From positions 1 through 52,428 of the forward strand of contig CAYXFX010000004.1 in assembly GCA_964464405.1 (NCBI GenBank): 52,428 nt of DNA, written 5' to 3'. Source of the stretch: an uncultured Candidatus Saccharibacteria bacterium (GTDB lineage Bacteria; Patescibacteriota; Minisyncoccia; UBA11713; 2-01-FULL-45-33). The notes under the pieces are model-generated. The model was not told the origin of the DNA and ran no database searches. It saw nothing but the letters and a program-made list of their open reading frames with translations. This document shows, in pieces, positions 32,463 to 41,701 of this stretch. Positions within the stretch are counted from its first letter, which is position 1; the number at the start of each line of letters is the position of its first letter. The translations under genes and the position numbers were made by a program.

Positions 32463-35400
32463 ATGGAAACTACAAAAAACACAGAACAAAAAATTACGGA
32501 TTTTAAATCGCTTTCGATAAAACTTGCTTCTCCCGAACGGATTTTGGCGTGGTCTAGAGGTGAAATTACAAAGCCTGAAACTATCAATTACAGAACCCAG
32601 CGGCCGGAAAAAGACGGTTTATTTGATGAGCGTATTTTCGGACCAGAAAAAGATTTTGAGTGTTACTGCGGCAAATATAAACGTGTAAGATATAAGGGCA
32701 TAATTTGTGACAAATGCGGAGTCGAAGTAACGCGTTCAATTGTGCGAAGAGAAAGAATGGGGCACATTGCGCTTGCGGCTCCGGTATCTCATATTTGGTT
32801 TTTGCGGGGAGTTCCTTCCAGAATAGGAATTTTACTTGATATTCCTGTTTCTGACTTGGAAAAAGTAATTTATTTCGGCGGATATATAATTACCAAAATT
32901 GACGAAAAGGCAAAAGCCGATGCCTTAAAAGCGCTTGATCAAGAATTTAAAACAAAATCAAAATCAATTAACGCTTCCGAAAAAGAAGCTTTAAAAACCG
33001 CGTTTGACAAAGCAAAAACCGAAATAAATAATTTGTGCCCCCATTCTATTTTATCAGAAGTCGAATATCACAGGTTAAGTTTAAAATATGCAAATGTTTT
33101 TGAGGCAGGGATAGGGGCAGAGGCGCTTCGTAATATTTGCGCTACTCTCAATTTGCATGATTTAAAAAAACTTGCAGAAAGCGAGCTTGAAGAAGCGGCG
33201 CCGCTCCAGAAGAAAAAAATATCGCGCAGGATTCGATTTATAAGTTCTATGATAAAATCTGGCGTCAGGCCTGAGTGGATGTTTTTAAATATGATTCCCG
33301 TAATTCCTCCAGCATTGCGTCCGATGGTTGCTTTAGAGGGCGGACGGCACGCCACATCCGATGTAAACGATCTTTACCGCCGGGTTATAAATCGCAATAA
33401 CCGCTTAAAAAAATTACTTGAACTTAAAGCTCCGGAAGTGATCGTAAGAAATGAAAAACGCATGCTTCAGGAAGCCGTTGACTCTTTGATTGATAACTCA
33501 ATCAAGCGCTCGCAAGGGCCTGCTGCAACTTCGCAGGCGCAAAAACGGCCGCTTCGGTCCATGGCAGATATGCTGAAAGGAAAACAGGGGCGTTTCAGGC
33601 AGAATCTTTTGGGCAAAAGAGTGGATTATTCAGGGCGTTCTGTTATCGTGGTCGGCCCTGACTTACATTTAAACCAGTGCGGACTTCCTAAGCATATGGC
33701 TTTGGAACTTTTCAGGCCTTTTGTGATACATACATTAATTGAAAAAAATTTAGCTCACACAATCCGCGGTGCTGGCAGACTGATAGATGAACTGATCCCC
33801 GAGGTTTGGGAGTCTTTAGAAGAAGTTATTAAAAATAAATATGTTCTCTTAAACCGTGCGCCCACTCTTCACCGTTTGGGAATTCAGGCATTTCAGCCCA
33901 AGCTTATCGAAGGGAATGCTATTCAACTTCACCCGCTTGTTTGCGAGGCTTTTAATGCCGACTTTGATGGAGACCAGATGGCGGTTCATTTGCCTTTAAC
34001 GGACGAAGCGCAGCAGGAAGCGAGAGATCTAATGGCGTCAAATAAAAATTTATTAAAACCAGGGAACGGCGGCCCTGTCGTGACACCGCGCCAAGACGTT
34101 GTGATGGGCATTGCATATTTAACTCGAATAAAAGAAGGAGCCAAGGGTGAAGGCAAATATTTTTCAAGCCCAAACGAAGCCATTCTTGCTTATGATTTTG
34201 ATTTGGTAAGTTTACAAGCAAAAGTTTTTGTTAAAATAACAAAAACTCCAAAATACCAATCAGTTAAAGGCGAACTTTTGGAAACTACAATTGGCCGACT
34301 TATTTTTAACAGCGTAATACCTCGCGAGTATTCTTTTTTAAACCAGGAAATGAAAAAAAATGATTTGGACCGTTTGGTATCCGACCTAATTCAACGCTTC
34401 GGCATTGATGAAACTCCGCCAATTCTTGATAAAATCAAAAGTATCGGATATCGCTACGCCACCAAATCCGGAATTAGCTGGGGAATGGACGATGTGCAAG
34501 TTCCCAAAGAAAAAAATATATTAATTGACGCTGCCAAGAAAGAGGCGGCTGTTGTTGAAAACCAATACGGCGAAGGTCTTTTAACAGAAAATGAGCGATA
34601 CGAAAAAATTATTGAAATTTGGAGTGCGGTTAAAACTAAAATTGACAAATTAGCTCCTCAAACTCTAGATCCATACGGACCAATTCATTACATGGTAAAT
34701 TCTGGCGCAAGAGGTAGCTGGGCACAGATTAACCAGATCGCAAGCATGAAAGGGCTTGTCGTAAACCCGTCCGGTCGCGTTATTGAGCTTCCTATTTTAT
34801 CTTCTTATAAAGAAGGGTTAAACGTGCTTGAATACTTTATTTCTACGCATGCTGCCAGAAAAGGAACGGCGGACACTGCGCTAAAAACTGCAGTTGCTGG
34901 ATATTTGACACGGCGTTTAGTTGATGTTGTTCAAGACGTAATTATCAGCGAGCCGGATTGCAAAGATGAAGTTGGATTTGAAGTTTATAAAAAGGACTAC
35001 GAAATGATCGGTAAAAATTTCGCAATGAGAATTTTTGGGCGTGTTTTGGCTTCTGATGCCGTAGACTCGGCATCAGGGAAAGTTTTAATTAAAAAAGGAC
35101 ATCTTTTGTCTTTGTCTGATGCCAATTTGATAGCTCAAGCAGATATTCCGACGGTTTCTTTACGCTCACCGATTGCGTGCCGTTCAATCCGGGGAATTTG
35201 CCAGCTTTGCTACGGGTACGATCTTGGCTCAAATACACCGATCAAATTAGGAGAGGCGATTGGGATTGTTGCGGCACAAGCAATCGGAGAGCCGGGAACC
35301 CAGCTTACCATGCGGACTTTCCATGTCGGAGGTATTGCAGGAGCCGCAGATATTACAAGGGGATTGCCGCGAGTCGAAGAAATTTTTGAAATACGAACAC

Positions 35401-36107
35401 CGAAGGAAACTGCTTTTGTGTCAAATGTTTCCGGAGAAGTTGTTGATATTTCAGATGTAGAAGCACCGGGCGGCGGGAGGGACAAATTGATCAGAGTTCA
35501 AAATGAAGACACGAAACAAGTCTCTGATTTTGTGGTTCCATTCAACAAAACAATTTTAGTGAGCCCGGGAGAAAAAATTGCAGCAGGCTCCAGACTCACA
35601 GAAGGATCAGTCGATATGAAAGTTCTGCTTTCTTATGCGGGAGCGCGCGCGGTTCAAAATTATATAATTTTTGAAGTCCAACAGCTCTACACATTCCAAG
35701 GGACAAATATTAACGACAAACATATTGAAGTTATCGTGCGCCAGATGTTTTCACGTGTCCGCATAAAAGATACCGGAAGCACTGGGATGGGCGTTGGCGA
35801 AGTTGTAGAAAAAAGCAGATTCAGAGAAGAAAACTTAGCACAAAGGAAAGTCGGAGGAATGCCCGCGAAAGCCGTTCAGTTAGTGATGGGAATTACGAAT
35901 GTCGCGCTGACTACCGAAAGCTTTCTTTCCGCGGCGTCGTTTATGCAGACGATGCGCGTTTTGACAAATGCCGCAATTGAAGGGAAAGAGGACAGATTAA
36001 GGGGGCTTAAAGAAAACGTAATCATCGGAAGATTAATTCCCGCAGGAACTGGATACAGAAAAGAATATATAAAAAAATTAACTTCTCGCACGGAAGAAGA
36101 AGAATAA
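32463..36107 (+). CDS. rpoC: DNA-directed RNA polymerase subunit beta'
   Basis: CYCGKYK..CDKC zinc finger, NADFDGDQM catalytic motif, SIGEPGTQLTMRTFH-like trigger loop. Confidence 0.99.
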   Translation: METTKNTEQKITDFKSLSIKLASPERILAWSRGEITKPETINYRTQRPEKDGLFDERIFGPEKDFECYCGKYKRVRYKGIICDKCGVEVTRSIVRRERMGHIALAAPVSHIWFLRGVPSRIGILLDIPVSDLEKVIYFGGYIITKIDEKAKADALKALDQEFKTKSKSINASEKEALKTAFDKAKTEINNLCPHSILSEVEYHRLSLKYANVFEAGIGAEALRNICATLNLHDLKKLAESELEEAAPLQKKKISRRIRFISSMIKSGVRPEWMFLNMIPVIPPALRPMVALEGGRHATSDVNDLYRRVINRNNRLKKLLELKAPEVIVRNEKRMLQEAVDSLIDNSIKRSQGPAATSQAQKRPLRSMADMLKGKQGRFRQNLLGKRVDYSGRSVIVVGPDLHLNQCGLPKHMALELFRPFVIHTLIEKNLAHTIRGAGRLIDELIPEVWESLEEVIKNKYVLLNRAPTLHRLGIQAFQPKLIEGNAIQLHPLVCEAFNADFDGDQMAVHLPLTDEAQQEARDLMASNKNLLKPGNGGPVVTPRQDVVMGIAYLTRIKEGAKGEGKYFSSPNEAILAYDFDLVSLQAKVFVKITKTPKYQSVKGELLETTIGRLIFNSVIPREYSFLNQEMKKNDLDRLVSDLIQRFGIDETPPILDKIKSIGYRYATKSGISWGMDDVQVPKEKNILIDAAKKEAAVVENQYGEGLLTENERYEKIIEIWSAVKTKIDKLAPQTLDPYGPIHYMVNSGARGSWAQINQIASMKGLVVNPSGRVIELPILSSYKEGLNVLEYFISTHAARKGTADTALKTAVAGYLTRRLVDVVQDVIISEPDCKDEVGFEVYKKDYEMIGKNFAMRIFGRVLASDAVDSASGKVLIKKGHLLSLSDANLIAQADIPTVSLRSPIACRSIRGICQLCYGYDLGSNTPIKLGEAIGIVAAQAIGEPGTQLTMRTFHVGGIAGAADITRGLPRVEEIFEIRTPKETAFVSNVSGEVVDISDVEAPGGGRDKLIRVQNEDTKQVSDFVVPFNKTILVSPGEKIAAGSRLTEGSVDMKVLLSYAGARAVQNYIIFEVQQLYTFQGTNINDKHIEVIVRQMFSRVRIKDTGSTGMGVGEVVEKSRFREENLAQRKVGGMPAKAVQLVMGITNVALTTESFLSAASFMQTMRVLTNAAIEGKEDRLRGLKENVIIGRLIPAGTGYRKEYIKKLTSRTEEEE

Positions 36108-36126
36108 AATTATAAAACTGATTTAA

Positions 36127-36160
36127 AAAAATGGCAAACTTACCTAAGTTTGCCATTTTT
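36127..36160 (+). terminator. Intrinsic terminator after rpoC
   Basis: AAAAATGGCAAACTTA-CC-TAAGTTTGCCATTTTT perfect inverted repeat. Confidence 0.8.
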
Positions 36161-36214
36161 GAGTTGCCTTGCTACTTTGAAAGTAGAATTAAAGTTGCTT
36201 GACAAGGAGCGAAA

Positions 36215-36676
36215 ATGAAATTTGGAAAAATTTTGGCTATTTTAACTTGGGTGTTGGCGTTTAACGGAATTTCTTTCGCTGGAGGATTGGATCCATTTAA
36301 GATCTATTTAACGGAAGAAAAGTACCCGGAATTTGCAGAGTTGATTAAGGGTGTTGGTCTTACTGAACCCATTGCTTCCAAGGGATTATCAAGTAAACAA
36401 AATAAAGAATATGATTTTGCGGTGCAGGGCCGCGAAGCATGCTTTAATTTAACGGAAGATAAAATGGGTTGCAATGAACCTCTCACCATAATGCATGTCT
36501 TTTTTTCAACTAACGCCAAAAAAAATGCAAAGGGTGAAATTGTACAAGAAGAGGGACAAATTGCGTATGAGTCAAAGGTCATCGGTTTGATTTTTATGGA
36601 GCCTAAAATTGCATGGTTTGCCTCTGAAGACGCCATGAAAGCATATCGGAAATTAGTGATAGGAGAGCCGATTTAG
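36215..36676 (+). CDS. Secreted hypothetical protein
   Basis: Signal peptide, AAGGAG SD, 153 aa. Confidence 0.65.
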   Translation: MKFGKILAILTWVLAFNGISFAGGLDPFKIYLTEEKYPEFAELIKGVGLTEPIASKGLSSKQNKEYDFAVQGREACFNLTEDKMGCNEPLTIMHVFFSTNAKKNAKGEIVQEEGQIAYESKVIGLIFMEPKIAWFASEDAMKAYRKLVIGEPI

Positions 36677-36689
36677 GGGAGGCAGAAAA

Positions 36690-37208
36690 ATGATGGATTT
36701 ACCGCAATGGTTTTACTTGTCGCTTGGCGGAACAGTTCTTTCAATATTTCTTATTTACCTTTCCGGAATTTTCACACGGAAAGCAATTGGCACTTTTTTA
36801 ATGTTTGGATTTACAATACTTGGCAGTTTTGTTTTGTGGCACGGTTTAAATTCTGCCGAGTTGCAGTCTAGATATAACCTTGGCCGTCCTGATCCAAATT
36901 TCACTAAAGGAAGTTATCACATCGTGTGGGGGACTTATGATACTGTAAACAAAAAAGTATATTTATTTTCGAGTGGAAAAGATGAAGATCCGGAACAAGG
37001 TCCGCATTTGTTTGTGGTGGATCCATCTGACAAATTTTTGCAAAAACTTCTTAGAGAATTGCAAAAGAGGCGGCCGTTTATGATGGTTGTCCCCGGCGCA
37101 ATGCGTGGCCGTGATGCAAGGCGAGGGAGCGGAAACATGCAAGATTCCATAGAATTTCATCCAGAGCCCCCGCCCACATCAGCTCCTAAGGCATCGCAAT
37201 CAGGATGA
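36690..37208 (+). CDS. Membrane hypothetical protein (2 TM + soluble domain, Pro-rich tail)
   Basis: GGAGG SD; two N-terminal TMs; ends FHPEPPPTSAPK. Confidence 0.65.
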   Translation: MMDLPQWFYLSLGGTVLSIFLIYLSGIFTRKAIGTFLMFGFTILGSFVLWHGLNSAELQSRYNLGRPDPNFTKGSYHIVWGTYDTVNKKVYLFSSGKDEDPEQGPHLFVVDPSDKFLQKLLRELQKRRPFMMVVPGAMRGRDARRGSGNMQDSIEFHPEPPPTSAPKASQSG

Positions 37209-37218
37209 TTTTTTTAGA

Positions 37219-37255
37219 AATAAAAAATACCGACGGTAACGCCGGTTTTTTTATT
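37219..37255. terminator. Bidirectional terminator between convergent genes
   Basis: A-tract, ACCGAC/GCCGGT stem, T-tract. Confidence 0.55.
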
Positions 37256-37863
37256 TATCCTATAAATCTTGGCTTGTTTCTTACCGCTTCAAATTGGTTT
37301 GAGACGGATTGCTTAATTAAATTACGCGTCTCGTCAATTTGAAACTGCACAATTGTAATTTCATCTCCAACATTTTTTATTATTACTTCACCTTTAAATA
37401 TTACTTCCTTATCTGCGTCCGGAGTTTTCTTTAAAACCACTTCTGCTTTCACGGGAACATTCAGCGAGCCTCCGTGGTTTGAAAAAAAATGGAGATTTAC
37501 TACGTATTTCCCCGGAGGTACACCTTGTGTAACTGCCAGTTCGTAGTTTTCGGGTGAAAACACATCTGCGCCGAGGTCGTCTCTTAAATAAGACCACGTG
37601 GAACTTGTTCTATTGGAATATCCAACTGCGGTACCATCAGGCCCTTTTATCCAAAGATCAATATCTTGAGGTGCGTCATCAGGCCATCTTACTGAGACAA
37701 AAATGTTTCCTCCAATTTGTATAGTTTGGCTTTCTTGTTTTTTCTTTTCTTTTGGCAACAAAGTAAATAGAAATATTATAAATATCAAAAAAACAACTAA
37801 GTTAAATACGACGTCGCCCAAAGGAGTGGAGAAATCGTAGGAGTGTGTATTAGGAATTTTCAT
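37255..37863 (-). CDS. ExbD/MotB-like single-TM protein with YfaP/DUF2135-like soluble domain
   Basis: TM with acidic residue (GDVVFNLVVFL); DIDLWIKGPDG, RDDLG, PENYE, PGKYVVNLHFF; ATG 37863 has GGAG SD and overlaps the upstream gene. Confidence 0.62.
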   Translation of the reverse strand: MKIPNTHSYDFSTPLGDVVFNLVVFLIFIIFLFTLLPKEKKKQESQTIQIGGNIFVSVRWPDDAPQDIDLWIKGPDGTAVGYSNRTSSTWSYLRDDLGADVFSPENYELAVTQGVPPGKYVVNLHFFSNHGGSLNVPVKAEVVLKKTPDADKEVIFKGEVIIKNVGDEITIVQFQIDETRNLIKQSVSNQFEAVRNKPRFIG

Positions 37864-38422
37864 TATTGTGCTCCACATTGAGTTCGCGAACAATCATTCG
37901 CATATAGCCCAATCTGAAAACTGTGTTTAGAAGCATAAGACACGACCATGAAGTTAACATTCCGATGATCGAAGTAAATGCTGCTGTTTTGATTCCACCA
38001 ACAGATTCCTGAATGTATCCAATAATTTTCGCCAAATCAGTTTCGCCTACAATTTTGTGTTCAAAAATTGTAGCAATAAGCATAAATCCGATTAAAGTTC
38101 CTAGAAATCCAAGAATTGGAAGATAACCGTTGATATAGCTCATTAATATTTGCCTGCACTCGAAAGATAATTCAATATCATGCACGGAATTCAGCAATGC
38201 CTCGCGATCTTTTAAAATGAGACGGGTTAACCAGACAATGTTTCCTATGCTGAAAGTTAGGCCTATTATAAAAACCACGATTATAAAAAGCGTAGTTCCA
38301 GTACTATCAAGCGCTAAGAGTGTGTCTAATGTAAGCAAATTTATTTGCCTAAGCTCGGACAAAAGTAAGGCGAATAACCCAAAGAAAAAAAGCCATATTG
38401 TCAAAAAAGCATGTTTTTGCAT
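37850..38422 (-). CDS. MotA/TolQ/ExbB proton-channel family protein
   Basis: YLPILGFLGTLIGF and GGIKTAAFTSIIGML match ExbB/MotA TM signatures; ATG 38422 follows GAGGTGG SD. Confidence 0.75.
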   Translation of the reverse strand: MQKHAFLTIWLFFFGLFALLLSELRQINLLTLDTLLALDSTGTTLFIIVVFIIGLTFSIGNIVWLTRLILKDREALLNSVHDIELSFECRQILMSYINGYLPILGFLGTLIGFMLIATIFEHKIVGETDLAKIIGYIQESVGGIKTAAFTSIIGMLTSWSCLMLLNTVFRLGYMRMIVRELNVEHNNENS

Positions 38423-38536
38423 AAAAACCACCTCTTCTTGTCTGGTTCTATTTAAACATGAACATTTTTTTTTAGCAACTTGTGCATATTATTTGCATTG
38501 ATAATCTGAAAATAGATTGAAATAGGGAAGTGATTT

Positions 38537-39349
38537 ATGAAGAAAGCCGTTTTAACGCTTATTTGTTTTTTAAATTTTTTGATCATTCCGAATGAAATCA
38601 TTGCTTCTCCACTAGGTGATGCTATGCGTATTGCGCGTAGTGCCGCAGTGCGTGTTTTTACGGATTGTGTGTATCTTATTAAATTGAAATCCGGCGCAGA
38701 GTTATATTTAACGCCAATTCCTCGTTTCGGAGGAAACGGTTTTTTTGTAAAAAGCAAAAATTACACCAATGCTGTTTTAACAGCGAGTCATGTAGTTACT
38801 TGTCCCAATTTTTTTGATGAAAATATATTTCCTGATGCTTTTGACAAAGATCAAATTACAACTGTAACTAACGCAGCTAGATTGCGTGTCGAATATAATG
38901 GGTTAAGATATAAGGCAAATCTCGTTAAATTATTGATTTCTGCAGACAATGTGGATAAAGATTTGGCGCTTTTAGATGTGCAATTGCCGTCCGACGTACA
39001 ACACACCAAAGTGAGTATAGATCAGGGAGATGATCTTGATTTAGGTGATGAAGTTTGGGTTTTGGGTTATTTGCAACTATCAAGCGAAGAAAAAGATCCT
39101 CGCTTAAGCTCTTGGCTTATTAGGCATTCTGTAATTTCTGACATAGTTGGAGGAACCATTAAATTAAGAGAGTTTATGTTTCCTGGCGAATCAGGCTCAA
39201 TGATTGCTGTCATAAAAGAAGGGTTGCCATATGCTGTGGCACTTGGAACTTCGGCGCTTTTTATACAATATGACGGCATTATTCCATTGGGAGTTGTCCC
39301 AAAGGGTGTGAGTTGGGCTATGAGAATACCTAAAGATTTTGTTGAGTGA
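38537..39349 (+). CDS. Secreted trypsin-like serine protease
   Basis: Signal peptide; GNGFF, LTASHVV, DLALL, FPGESGS (GxSG). Confidence 0.75.
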   Translation: MKKAVLTLICFLNFLIIPNEIIASPLGDAMRIARSAAVRVFTDCVYLIKLKSGAELYLTPIPRFGGNGFFVKSKNYTNAVLTASHVVTCPNFFDENIFPDAFDKDQITTVTNAARLRVEYNGLRYKANLVKLLISADNVDKDLALLDVQLPSDVQHTKVSIDQGDDLDLGDEVWVLGYLQLSSEEKDPRLSSWLIRHSVISDIVGGTIKLREFMFPGESGSMIAVIKEGLPYAVALGTSALFIQYDGIIPLGVVPKGVSWAMRIPKDFVE

Positions 39350-39356
39350 CTTTTTT

Positions 39357-39384
39357 AACTGCGCAAAGCATAAGCGCAGTTTTT
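39357..39384 (+). terminator. Intrinsic terminator
   Basis: AACTGCGC/GCGCAGTT stem + T tract. Confidence 0.6.
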
Positions 39385-39409
39385 AATTAAATTTGGTATA
39401 ATAATTATA

Positions 39410-41701
39410 TTGTCAAAAAAGAAAAAAAATAAGGAAAAATATGGGAGGCCTCAAAAACCTTCTTGGCATGAAAGTTTAAAGCCTGAAACCAAACACTCAC
39501 TTTGGGCAGTTTTTTCGCTGGCTTTGGGCCTTCTTTTTACTCTTGCCTACTTTGGAAAAGGCGGGCCTGCGGGAGCGGCTGCCCAGCGCGGCCTAAACAT
39601 TATTTTTGGCAAAGGGTTTTTCCTTGTTTCTTTGTCTTTTTTCCTTGCATCTCTTTCGTTTTTGTTTGCTTTAGGAAATCATTTGGTTTTAACGACTGTA
39701 GTCGGCGGGATTTTGTTTTTAATAAGCACTTTGGGTATATCCGATATTATTTTAGGGGAGTTTACTGGCGGCTACATCGGATATTTAGCATCTTATCCAT
39801 TTTTAAAATTATTTGATTTTTGGGCATCTCTTGTAATTTTTGCAGCGCTTCTTCTGGCATCTTTACTTATCATGTTGAATTTTTCTTTGAAACCGAAAAG
39901 GCGGGAAGGCGATTCTGATGAAAATTTAGAAAAAGAAGTTAAAATTTCGCAGCCGGCGCTATCTAATCCTCAGCAAACTTCTCTGCGAACCCAAGAAATT
40001 GCAGCGCAGGAAGGAGAAAAAGAAAAGACGGAAGAAGACGAAGAAGCCCACCCGATTCTTAACATGTTTACACGAACCAAACCAAAATTGCAAAAAGCCG
40101 AATATAAAGCAATTGAGTATAATTTTCCCCCACTCGATATTTTAGAGGATGATAAGGGAACTCCATCTTCGGGCGACATAAAGGCAAATGCAAATATTGT
40201 AAAAAGAACTTTGCAAAATTTCGGAATAGATGTCGAAATGTCGGAAGTCAATGTCGGGCCTTCGGTAACTCAGTATACTTTGAAGCCCGCAGAAGGTATA
40301 AAATTGTCGCGCATCACGGCTTTGCAAAATGATCTTGCTTTGGCGCTTGCTGCGCATCCCTTGCGTATCGAAGCACCGATTCCGGGAAAATCTTTGGTGG
40401 GAATTGAGATACCAAATAGATCCATAGCCCTTGTGGGGCTCAGAAGCCTCCTTGGCATAGAAGATTTTCAAAAAGCCGCGCCTTTATCTATTACCTTAGG
40501 ACGCGATGTTTCAGGACGCGAGGTTTTTGCCGATATTGCAAAAATGCCCCATCTTTTAATCGCTGGAGCAACAGGTTCCGGAAAGTCGATTGCTATACAC
40601 ACGCTAATTATAAGTTTGCTTTATAAAAATTCTCCGGAATTTTTAAGGTTTCTTATGGTAGATCCGAAAAGAGTGGAATTAACAGGATATAACGAAATCC
40701 CGCATTTACTTACACCTGTGATTACTGATGCCAAAAAAACAATCGCTGCACTAAGATGGGCCGTAAGAGAAATGGAAAGAAGATACGAAAAATTATCAGC
40801 GGTTGGCACTCGCGATATTTTTTCATACAACAATGAAATGATAAAATCAAAAAGCCCCGAGGAAATTTTACCGAATATAATAATTATTATTGACGAGCTG
40901 GCTGATCTTATGGCTGCATACCCGCGAGAAATGGAAGCTTCGATCGTGCGTTTGGCGCAAATGTCGCGCGCAGTCGGGATTCATTTAATAGTTTCCACAC
41001 AGAGGCCTTCCGTTGAAGTTATAACGGGATTAATTAAAGCAAATATTACTGCTCGCGTGGCTTTGCAAGTTGCTTCCGGAGTTGATTCAAGAACGATTTT
41101 AGATATGTCTGGCGCCGAAAAGCTGTTAGGGAACGGAGATATGCTTTATTTGGCGGGAGACACGTCCAAACCTCGTAGAATTCAGGGTGCTTTTATTTCC
41201 GAGCGTGAAGTGAAAAGAGTGGTGAATTTCCTTTCCGATCAAGCTACGGAGTTTGCAGGAGCACCGGCAATTGATTTTGATACAAAAAATGTAATAGCTA
41301 CTAACTCGGATTTGCAATTAGATGGTTTTGAAGAAGGGGGGGGCGACGTAGACGATGAATTGTATGAGGAGGCAAAAAAATTAGTAATTGAGGCTCAGAA
41401 AGCGTCGGCTTCCTATTTGCAACGAAGGTTACGAGTAGGATATGCGAGGGCGGCAAGACTTTTAGATGTTTTGGAAAACGAAGGAATAATCGGTCCGGGA
41501 GAGGGAGCTAAACCAAGAGACGTTTTGATAAAGAAAGATGATGTTGAGGAAGCGCTGGTGGAGAATTTCGAAGCCGCAGTCGAGTCTAAAGCGCGCGAAG
41601 AAAAAAAAATTGAAAAAGCAATAGATCGCGTAGAGCGTGCGCCAAGCGACAAAAAAAAGGATGCCGATTCCAACATCCCATATACAAACTTTGATTTTTG
41701 A
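39410..41701 (+). CDS. ftsK: DNA translocase FtsK/SpoIIIE
   Basis: 4 N-terminal TMs, RIEAPIPGK, PHLLIAGATGSGKS, IIIDELADLM, gamma domain SASYLQRRLRVGYARAARLLD; TTG start. Confidence 0.96.
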   Translation: MSKKKKNKEKYGRPQKPSWHESLKPETKHSLWAVFSLALGLLFTLAYFGKGGPAGAAAQRGLNIIFGKGFFLVSLSFFLASLSFLFALGNHLVLTTVVGGILFLISTLGISDIILGEFTGGYIGYLASYPFLKLFDFWASLVIFAALLLASLLIMLNFSLKPKRREGDSDENLEKEVKISQPALSNPQQTSLRTQEIAAQEGEKEKTEEDEEAHPILNMFTRTKPKLQKAEYKAIEYNFPPLDILEDDKGTPSSGDIKANANIVKRTLQNFGIDVEMSEVNVGPSVTQYTLKPAEGIKLSRITALQNDLALALAAHPLRIEAPIPGKSLVGIEIPNRSIALVGLRSLLGIEDFQKAAPLSITLGRDVSGREVFADIAKMPHLLIAGATGSGKSIAIHTLIISLLYKNSPEFLRFLMVDPKRVELTGYNEIPHLLTPVITDAKKTIAALRWAVREMERRYEKLSAVGTRDIFSYNNEMIKSKSPEEILPNIIIIIDELADLMAAYPREMEASIVRLAQMSRAVGIHLIVSTQRPSVEVITGLIKANITARVALQVASGVDSRTILDMSGAEKLLGNGDMLYLAGDTSKPRRIQGAFISEREVKRVVNFLSDQATEFAGAPAIDFDTKNVIATNSDLQLDGFEEGGGDVDDELYEEAKKLVIEAQKASASYLQRRLRVGYARAARLLDVLENEGIIGPGEGAKPRDVLIKKDDVEEALVENFEAAVESKAREEKKIEKAIDRVERAPSDKKKDADSNIPYTNFDF

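Follow-up and report, generated by a model that had tools for sequence, protein, structure and literature searches.

A three-gene cassette with a divergent MotA/ExbB-type channel shared by Proteobacteria, phages and a candidate phyla radiation bacterium

Results

We analyzed a 52,428-nucleotide stretch of bacterial DNA (contig CAYXFX010000004.1, positions 1 to 52,428; hereafter the window), in which the interval between rpoC (32463-36107) and ftsK (39410-41701) holds five genes. Three of these, which we call A, B, and C, form the cassette that is the subject of this report. Gene A (190 amino acids (aa), 37850-38422) encodes a channel subunit and gene B (202 aa, 37255-37863) a partner with an aspartate-bearing transmembrane (TM) helix; both are read from the minus strand. 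Gene C (172 aa, 36690-37208), convergent to them on the plus strand, encodes a third membrane protein. Taking the starts chosen by the gene caller, ATG 38422 for A and ATG 37863 for B, the end of A overlaps the beginning of B by 14 nucleotides (nt; 37850-37863), suggesting that the two genes are translationally coupled; alternative starts on the same strand are a GTG at 38431 for A and a TTG at 37893 for B. An overlap of 14 nt is also the commonest among the A-B pairs of the 150 loci described below, that of Azospirillum brasilense Sp7 included. An earlier reading made from the letters of the window only (the sequence-only reading) had predicted A, B, C, and a fourth gene for a 153-aa secreted protein, and all four open reading frames (ORFs) are present, with Shine-Dalgarno-like motifs (AAGGAG, GGAGG, GGAG, and GAGGTG) 5' of all four. 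Between the convergent ends of C and B lies a GC-rich hairpin (37229-37246) with an A-run on one flank and a T-run on the other, which is likely to be a bidirectional terminator serving both C and the A-B operon.

The RpoB protein of the window is 75-77% identical to proteins of Candidatus Giovannonibacteria, so the organism is a bacterium of the candidate phyla radiation (CPR)/Patescibacteria. The stretch is not an assembly artefact, because a single 6.7-kb contig from one groundwater run covers the cassette region with zero differences and contigs from a second, independent study tile it with six single-nucleotide polymorphisms (SNPs).

We compared the A family with known channel proteins. 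Eighty-four of 88 aligned members match the Pfam family MotA_ExbB (PF01618), the best at 3.4e-11. A profile of the family retrieved from the PDB a solved MotA (8gqy, 7e-7), a ZorA-like chain (8vvn), PomA, TolQ, and ZorA, and a profile of the CPR branch retrieved 8vvn at 3.6e-6; among PADLOC models the A protein of the window gave weak ZorA matches, the best at 2e-5. The protein carries the motifs LGFLGTLIGF, with T109, and GGIKTAAFTSIIG, with T150/S151. As a criterion for the superfamily we used the hydroxyl residues of the ion path, which are T145 and T178 in TolQ and T148 and T181 in ExbB. When A was aligned with E. coli TolQ by hhalign (E=1.6e-4), the LGFLGT motifs were superimposed, T109 fell on TolQ T145, and column 151 fell on TolQ T178; this column is Thr in at least 90% of the family and Ser in the window. 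The A family therefore shows both the ion-path hydroxyl positions and a family-profile match over the last two TM helices. Family-wide charge counts placed the N-terminus inside, the loop between helices 1 and 2 outside, the loop between helices 2 and 3 inside, the loop between helices 3 and 4 outside, and the C-terminus inside, which is the four-helix topology of MotA. The cytoplasmic loop has only about 30 aa in the window and is shorter still in phages, where the median length of A is 156 aa. Judged by these comparisons, A is a divergent, minimal, and real member of the MotA/ExbB/TolQ channel superfamily.

The B protein begins with a short N-terminus, followed by a TM helix (residues 15-35). 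A linker of some 18 aa, poorly ordered in the model, leads to the head, a beta-sandwich of nine strands (residues 54-188). Of 90 sequences compared, at least 90% carry Asp17 in the TM helix, so that B has a single N-terminal TM helix with a conserved Asp near its predicted cytoplasmic end, the arrangement of ExbD, TolR, and MotB. In hhalign comparisons B aligned with E. coli ExbD over the TM helix alone, in register and with D17 on D25 (P=0.009), and nothing aligned with TolR. The head is another matter. Neither the alpha/beta domain of the ExbD/TolR type nor an OmpA-like peptidoglycan-binding domain was found in B by Pfam, PDB sequence, hhalign, or fold searches. An AlphaFold2 model built from 90 sequences had a mean predicted local distance difference test score (pLDDT) of 88.6, and a Foldseek search with it gave no PDB match at E<1e-3, the best being generic Ig-like domains; among viral models it matched uncharacterised phage proteins only. 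A sequence search of the PDB with B also gave no match, the B protein of the window belongs to no Pfam, NCBIfam, or PADLOC family, and the 90 relatives belong to no Pfam or PADLOC family apart from single weak matches such as DUF2135. B is thus ExbD-like in its TM helix only, with a novel beta-sandwich head. These results agree with the sequence-only reading, which had described A and B as a non-canonical pair of a MotA/ExbB-type channel and a single-TM partner with a membrane Asp and a soluble domain unlike those of ExbD or OmpA.

The head carries an invariant set of acidic and aromatic residues (W60, D67, D69, W71, D95, D96, G98, E108, Y120, and E168), which looks like a putative ligand or metal site. 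The earlier suggestion that the domain resembles YfaP/DUF2135 found marginal support. An hhalign comparison of the B profile with E. coli YfaP (P=8e-4, probability 24%) aligned a common motif, W-x(2,3)-D-x-D-[LI]-D-L-[WH]-V-x-x-P-D-G...Y-x-N...G-[KR]-Y-x-V-x-[LI]-x-[FY]-[FY], but the B protein of the window had no match to DUF2135 (PF09906) at E<=1 and only one of the 90 relatives had one, at E=0.0036. The likeness of the aligned sequences appears marginal. YfaP itself, a protein of the alpha-2-macroglobulin operon of E. coli, differs from B in being secreted and soluble, with neither an Asp-bearing TM helix nor a motor context.

C has two TM helices, and the loop joining them has a mean net charge of +2.4 across the family. 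Since this loop is positively charged, the N- and C-termini and the soluble part are predicted to lie outside. Its conserved parts are LGRPxP directly after the second TM helix, a small alpha/beta domain (residues 74-158), and a C-terminal [FY]xxPxPxxPxK, which reads HPEPPPTSAPK in the window and belongs to a proline-rich tail of about 12 residues that follows the domain. An AlphaFold2 model of C reached a pLDDT of 83, but its fold had no significant match in the PDB (best E=0.057). C belongs to no Pfam family, the C protein of the window matched no PADLOC model, hhalign found no similarity between C and TolA, and no Ser or His is conserved in the TM helices. A lysozyme fusion was seen in none of 90 B and 88 C sequences. 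The two TM helices and the proline-rich tail noted by the sequence-only reading are thus real; the TonB-like transducer that it proposed is less so, because TonB and TolA have a single TM anchor with SHLS/SxxxH, a long spacer, and a C-terminal domain of the TonB/TolA type, and C is not built in this way. C may be called TonB-like at most by analogy of gene order and position.

We next considered the cassette as a whole. We recovered 150 loci through B alone and then counted the neighboring A and C genes. An A homologue was adjacent in about 138-140 of the 150, and a C homologue in 112 when an initial hidden Markov model (HMM) of seven sequences was used and in about 130-141 when the neighbors were clustered; in most loci where no neighbor was counted, the match lay near a contig end. 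The usual layout is A, B, and C in this order on one strand with overlapping stops and starts, C being directly downstream in most lineages, and the inverted C of the CPR loci is the sole peculiarity of the CPR clade. The B protein of the window is 34-78% and the C protein 12-70% identical to family members. Profile HMMs recovered all three genes in Rhizobium phage 16-3, in phage P10VF of Rhizobium leguminosarum, and in A. brasilense Sp7. The sequence-only reading had named a lack of co-occurrence in other genomes as one result that would refute it, and co-occurrence of the C family with A-B was found in other genomes and in phages. No other neighbor is conserved: 135 proteins flanking 79 bacterial loci fell into 108 Pfam families, mostly housekeeping, and five were phage portals. 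These data show that the three genes are passed on together and that the cassette is self-contained.

How common the cassette appears depends on the search. A word-index search returned just 11 B homologues, all on low-GC CPR-like or high-GC metagenome contigs, and a profile search of 1.8 billion representatives returned 2081 clusters at 50% identity. B was found in at least 586 GTDB species genomes, mostly of Alpha- and Gammaproteobacteria and with Azospirillum, Skermanella, Denitrobaculum, and Pelagibius among the cultured carriers, and in 58 viral contigs of IMG/VR. The module is therefore not peculiar to the CPR but widespread in Proteobacteria and phages. A. brasilense Sp7 has the complete trio on its 1.75-Mb replicon, in a record with two B-matching places, and we observed two such places in each of seven Azospirillum replicons of 1.75-2.05 Mb (A. 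brasilense, A. argentinense, and Azospirillum sp. TSH58); with two places per replicon, A. brasilense Sp7 is a convenient genetic model. In a Rhodospirillaceae single-cell genome (L085:2317-4762) the order is B-A-B-C, with two diverged B genes around A. In five loci of Kiloniellaceae, Denitrobaculum, and Pelagibius (L035, L044, L048, L058, and L088), the cassette adjoins a T7-type portal gene (Head-tail_con, E=1.7e-136) and has two asparagine-synthase-like genes on its other side, which suggests a prophage-like or phage-derived island.

In the viral contigs, some cassettes lie between genes for T4-type head closure (Hc2)/tail-sheath stabilizer and the gene for the small terminase, and others adjoin genes for a helicase loader, a single-stranded-DNA-binding protein, a DNA polymerase, and SbcCD-like proteins. 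Because these T4-like structural, terminase, and replication genes are present, the contigs represent real phages. Isolated phages carry the cassette as well. In 16-3, p038, p040, and p042 are A, B, and C; in P10VF the trio is genes 191-193; and further carriers are AF3, RL38J1, RL2RES, and the RHph series. Both lytic and temperate phages are among the carriers, and in the isolated phages all of the cassette genes are annotated as hypothetical or unnamed.

To trace the origin of the CPR copy, we built a maximum-likelihood tree from 92 B proteins. All five CPR sequences fell into a single, long-branched clade (support 100/100), whose surrounding group includes viral and proteobacterial members, and the deepest split of the tree set apart an all-viral clade of 15. 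Within the CPR the cassette lies after ruvA, after rtcB, or after rpoC, and at least five CPR lineages share its arrangement across these three genomic sites. In Giovannonibacteria relatives with 77-86% RpoB identity, the interval from rpoC to ftsK is occupied by other genes. The CPR copy thus most likely entered a variable rpoC-ftsK slot by horizontal transfer, with the phage/proteobacterial pool as its ultimate source. Between B and its counterpart in the closest cassette-bearing relative, the proportion of nonsynonymous differences (pN) was 0.13 and that of synonymous differences (pS) 0.72, giving a dN/dS of about 0.06; for C, pN was 0.20 and synonymous sites were saturated, and A was more divergent than B and C. 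These substitution patterns argue that B is under purifying selection and that the cassette is functional in the window lineage.

Several observations concern the CPR loci individually. Among the cassette-less relatives (L154, L155, and L156), the rpoC-ftsK slot holds a Y1 transposase gene with genes for two proteins of 556 and 519 aa in one, a 73-aa gene with genes for two proteins of about 510 aa in another, and a 147-aa gene with one of 614 or more aa in the closest; the cassette occupies the slot (36108-39409 in the window) only in the window lineage and in L007-L010. Two contigs of metagenome-assembled genomes labelled Candidatus Saccharibacteria (L026 and L069) also carry B, but with a GC content of 52-55% and a place beside Pseudomonadota in the tree they are probably mis-binned and do not add further CPR cases. 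In a Candidatus Nealsonbacteria locus (L005:2056-4573), the cassette is followed on its 3' side by a 256-aa lipoprotein-like gene, a gene for a 124-aa protein with a weak eCIS_core match, and an AAA ATPase gene, which may be a piece of a contractile-injection-like locus.

Discussion

The known motors of the MotA/ExbB class each power a major process of the cell envelope: flagellar rotation, Ton-dependent uptake, Tol-Pal function in division, gliding and type IX secretion, and Zorya immunity. The cassette looks like another branch of this class, with two partner families of its own. Neither partner has a Pfam family, and the readable annotation records call them hypothetical or unnamed proteins, although the cassette is abundant, with at least 586 species, 2081 sequence clusters, and whole copies in lytic and temperate phages. 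The window contributes the occurrence in the CPR, with C inverted.

We propose, with a probability of about 0.6, that A-B-C is a self-contained membrane machine that represents a minimal, divergent branch of the MotA/ExbB/TolQ ion-driven motors, likely proton-driven and of the 5:2 type, and that it needs no outer membrane. By analogy with the known motors, a pentamer of A would surround a dimer of B (A5B2), and protons flowing past Asp17 of B and the threonines of A would turn or switch the complex. We place the B head outside the cytoplasm by analogy with ExbD only, and the short linker would keep it near the membrane, as in ExbD. Work would then be delivered outside the cytoplasm through the B head together with the outside domain and proline-rich tail of C, a cooperation that would parallel that of ExbD with TonB or of TolR with TolA; one may even speculate that B grips the tail of C in the manner of ExbD and TonB. 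Given that A is nearly devoid of a cytoplasmic domain and that no effector gene belongs to the cassette, the machine probably acts at the level of the membrane or cell wall. CPR bacteria are described as lacking an outer membrane, and the CPR copy is thus a constraint: the machine must work without one, and the load cannot be an outer-membrane component. Together with the lytic and temperate phages among the carriers, this again makes a load at the membrane or cell wall probable. Tentatively, our best guess is that the cassette has a role at the envelope in conflict between phage and host or between phages, such as the control of entry or exclusion.

Several results weigh against this proposal. 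The A protein of the window, searched alone, scored 20 bits against MotA_ExbB (E=6e-4), under the cut-off of 22.9. The alignment of B with ExbD is limited to the TM helix and, at P=0.009, is not significant by itself; moreover, the flanks of this helix are both net negative, so the positive-inside rule gives no verdict on the topology of B. C has no detectable relation to TonB or TolA. We identified no load, rotor, or effector. As to a role in defence, none of the 90 B proteins matched a PADLOC model, and the bacterial neighborhoods of the cassette are mostly housekeeping.

Among solved relatives, the family profile of A is closest to MotA (8gqy), with PomA further down, and A shares with these stators four TM helices with both termini inside and a partner with a TM Asp. 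It differs from them in having no torque-generating cytoplasmic domain, B has no OmpA-like peptidoglycan-binding domain, and a third subunit is present. No flagellar genes were found in the 30-45 kb stretch of the window or among the genes flanking related loci. The B head would have a parallel in GldLM/PorLM, the 5:2-type motor of gliding and type IX secretion, whose axle subunit has beta-sandwich domains outside the membrane. GldM, however, has an Arg-based TM helix and a long periplasmic shaft of four domains, and GldL is not known to belong to the MotA_ExbB Pfam family; neither GldL nor GldM was among the sequence matches or among the best 50 of 818 fold matches of B. The passages covered of a survey of MotAB and "generic ion transporters" (PMC12505986) report a great diversity of non-flagellar relatives and do not describe the A-B-C trio. 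Full-text searches of the literature turned up no account of the trio, none of DUF2135 paired with ExbB, and none of ExbB-like motors in phages.

The known systems nearest to the cassette in logic and gene order are TolQ-TolR-TolA and ExbB-ExbD-TonB, and one may ask whether the cassette is simply a diverged Tol or Ton system that energizes outer-membrane processes. The order is the same (a channel, a single-TM partner with Asp, and a third membrane protein with a proline-containing outside part), A matches TolQ and has the LGxxGT and A..T..G motifs with both TolQ channel threonine positions aligned, and B has Asp17 on ExbD Asp25 and a short linker between TM helix and head. We nevertheless regard this as very improbable. 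The nine-strand beta-sandwich of B is unlike the periplasmic alpha/beta domains of TolR and ExbD, C has two TM helices and a small domain before its short tail, with neither TolA homology nor a TonB-type fold match, and A has a MotA-like four-helix topology with a tiny cytoplasmic loop. Furthermore, no outer-membrane partner is linked to the cassette, no gene for a TonB-dependent receptor, Pal, or TolB is conserved beside it, and it is kept in phages and in the CPR, which are described as having no outer membrane. An anti-phage system of the Zorya type, with which the sequence-only reading had proposed a comparison, is the least probable of the alternatives. It would account for the common channel core, for the weak PADLOC ZorA matches of A, for the ZorA-type chains among the nearest solved relatives, and for the tie of both systems to phage biology, but the likeness ends at that core. 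Zorya systems have a 70-nm coiled-coil tail on ZorA, a peptidoglycan-binding domain in ZorB, and linked effectors, ZorC/ZorD or others (PMC11946911). The cassette shows none of the features that define Zorya types I-III: A, at 190 aa, lacks a long coiled-coil tail at its C-terminus, B is without a ZorB/OmpA-like peptidoglycan-binding domain, no gene for ZorC, ZorD, or another soluble effector is linked, and neither B nor C matches a PADLOC model.

The main rival is a gated ion leak, in which A-B would be a plugged proton channel rather than a motor. B and C would be its sensor and plug, the channel would open when triggered, for example by damage to the envelope or the entry of a phage, and the collapse of the membrane potential would lead to abortive infection or, in phages, serve lysis timing or exclusion. 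We consider this unlikely, but it deserves to be taken seriously: the cassette consists of membrane proteins only and contains no effector gene, lytic and temperate phages carry it, A has almost no cytoplasmic domain with which to meet a rotor (the more so in phages, with their shorter A), and the CPR-branch profile of A has ZorA-type chains among its nearest solved relatives. On the other hand, no PADLOC defence model matches B or C, most bacterial copies lie amid housekeeping genes and not in defence islands, and the strong conservation of the ligand-site-like surface of B, together with the conservation of the C tail, points to a specific partner for mechanical work or binding rather than to a plug alone. 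It could also be argued that the CPR copy is a decaying phage remnant or hitchhiking DNA without function, since the rpoC-ftsK site is variable among relatives and the cassette is sporadic in the CPR. This is hard to reconcile with three intact frames that have ribosome-binding sites and a terminator, with a pN of 0.13 against saturated pS for B and a similar pattern for C, with the same arrangement in at least five CPR lineages at three genomic sites, and with the presence of the cassette with few SNPs in independent groundwater samples, and we hold it to be highly doubtful.

The proposal of a proton-driven motor can be extended, although we put this forward as a speculative possibility. A-B-C may be a separate, phage-spread class of 5:2 ion-driven motors, in which the acidic/aromatic face of B binds a universal ligand of the wall or membrane, or Ca2+, the tail of C is gripped by B, and the whole would work as a proton-powered gate for the passage of phage DNA or protein. 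If this were so, phages and prophages would gain superinfection exclusion from the cassette, and cells that had domesticated it, such as this Giovannonibacterium, would gain immunity; the retention of the cassette in the CPR under purifying selection would mean that the motor does its work at the cytoplasmic membrane or wall without an outer membrane. Tractable systems in which to study function are A. brasilense Sp7, Sinorhizobium meliloti phage 16-3, and R. leguminosarum phage P10VF.

Neighboring genes at the locus

Directly 3' of rpoC lies a strong hairpin, TGGCAAACTTACCTAAGTTTGCCA, followed by a T-run (36125-36160), which is likely to be the rpoBC terminator and to mark the left edge of the inserted block. 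The gene for the 153-aa protein with a signal peptide (36215-36676, plus strand) stands immediately 5' of C. The sequence-only reading had counted this secreted protein as a member of the module, and we rejected it as a component: the closest relatives with the cassette (L007-L010), in which C directly adjoins rpoC, do not have it, nor do any of the other loci. It is marginally similar to the gene after rpoC in L154 and is a lineage-specific neighbor. On the other side of the cassette is a gene for a trypsin-like peptidase (38537-39349, plus strand; Pfam Trypsin_2, E=5e-7). We considered it as a fourth component and rejected it as well, because it is a backbone gene that lies next to ftsK in a cassette-less relative (E=3e-12), and the peptidase of the window has no detectable homologue at other cassette loci. 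Other cassettes also have a trypsin/HtrA-like peptidase nearby: that of phage 16-3 (p036), those of ten viral loci, and those of two bacterial loci, where PDZ domains are present; peptidase coordinates are L155:21183-21974, L151:1648-2547, L113:2534-3574, and L103:3620-4321.

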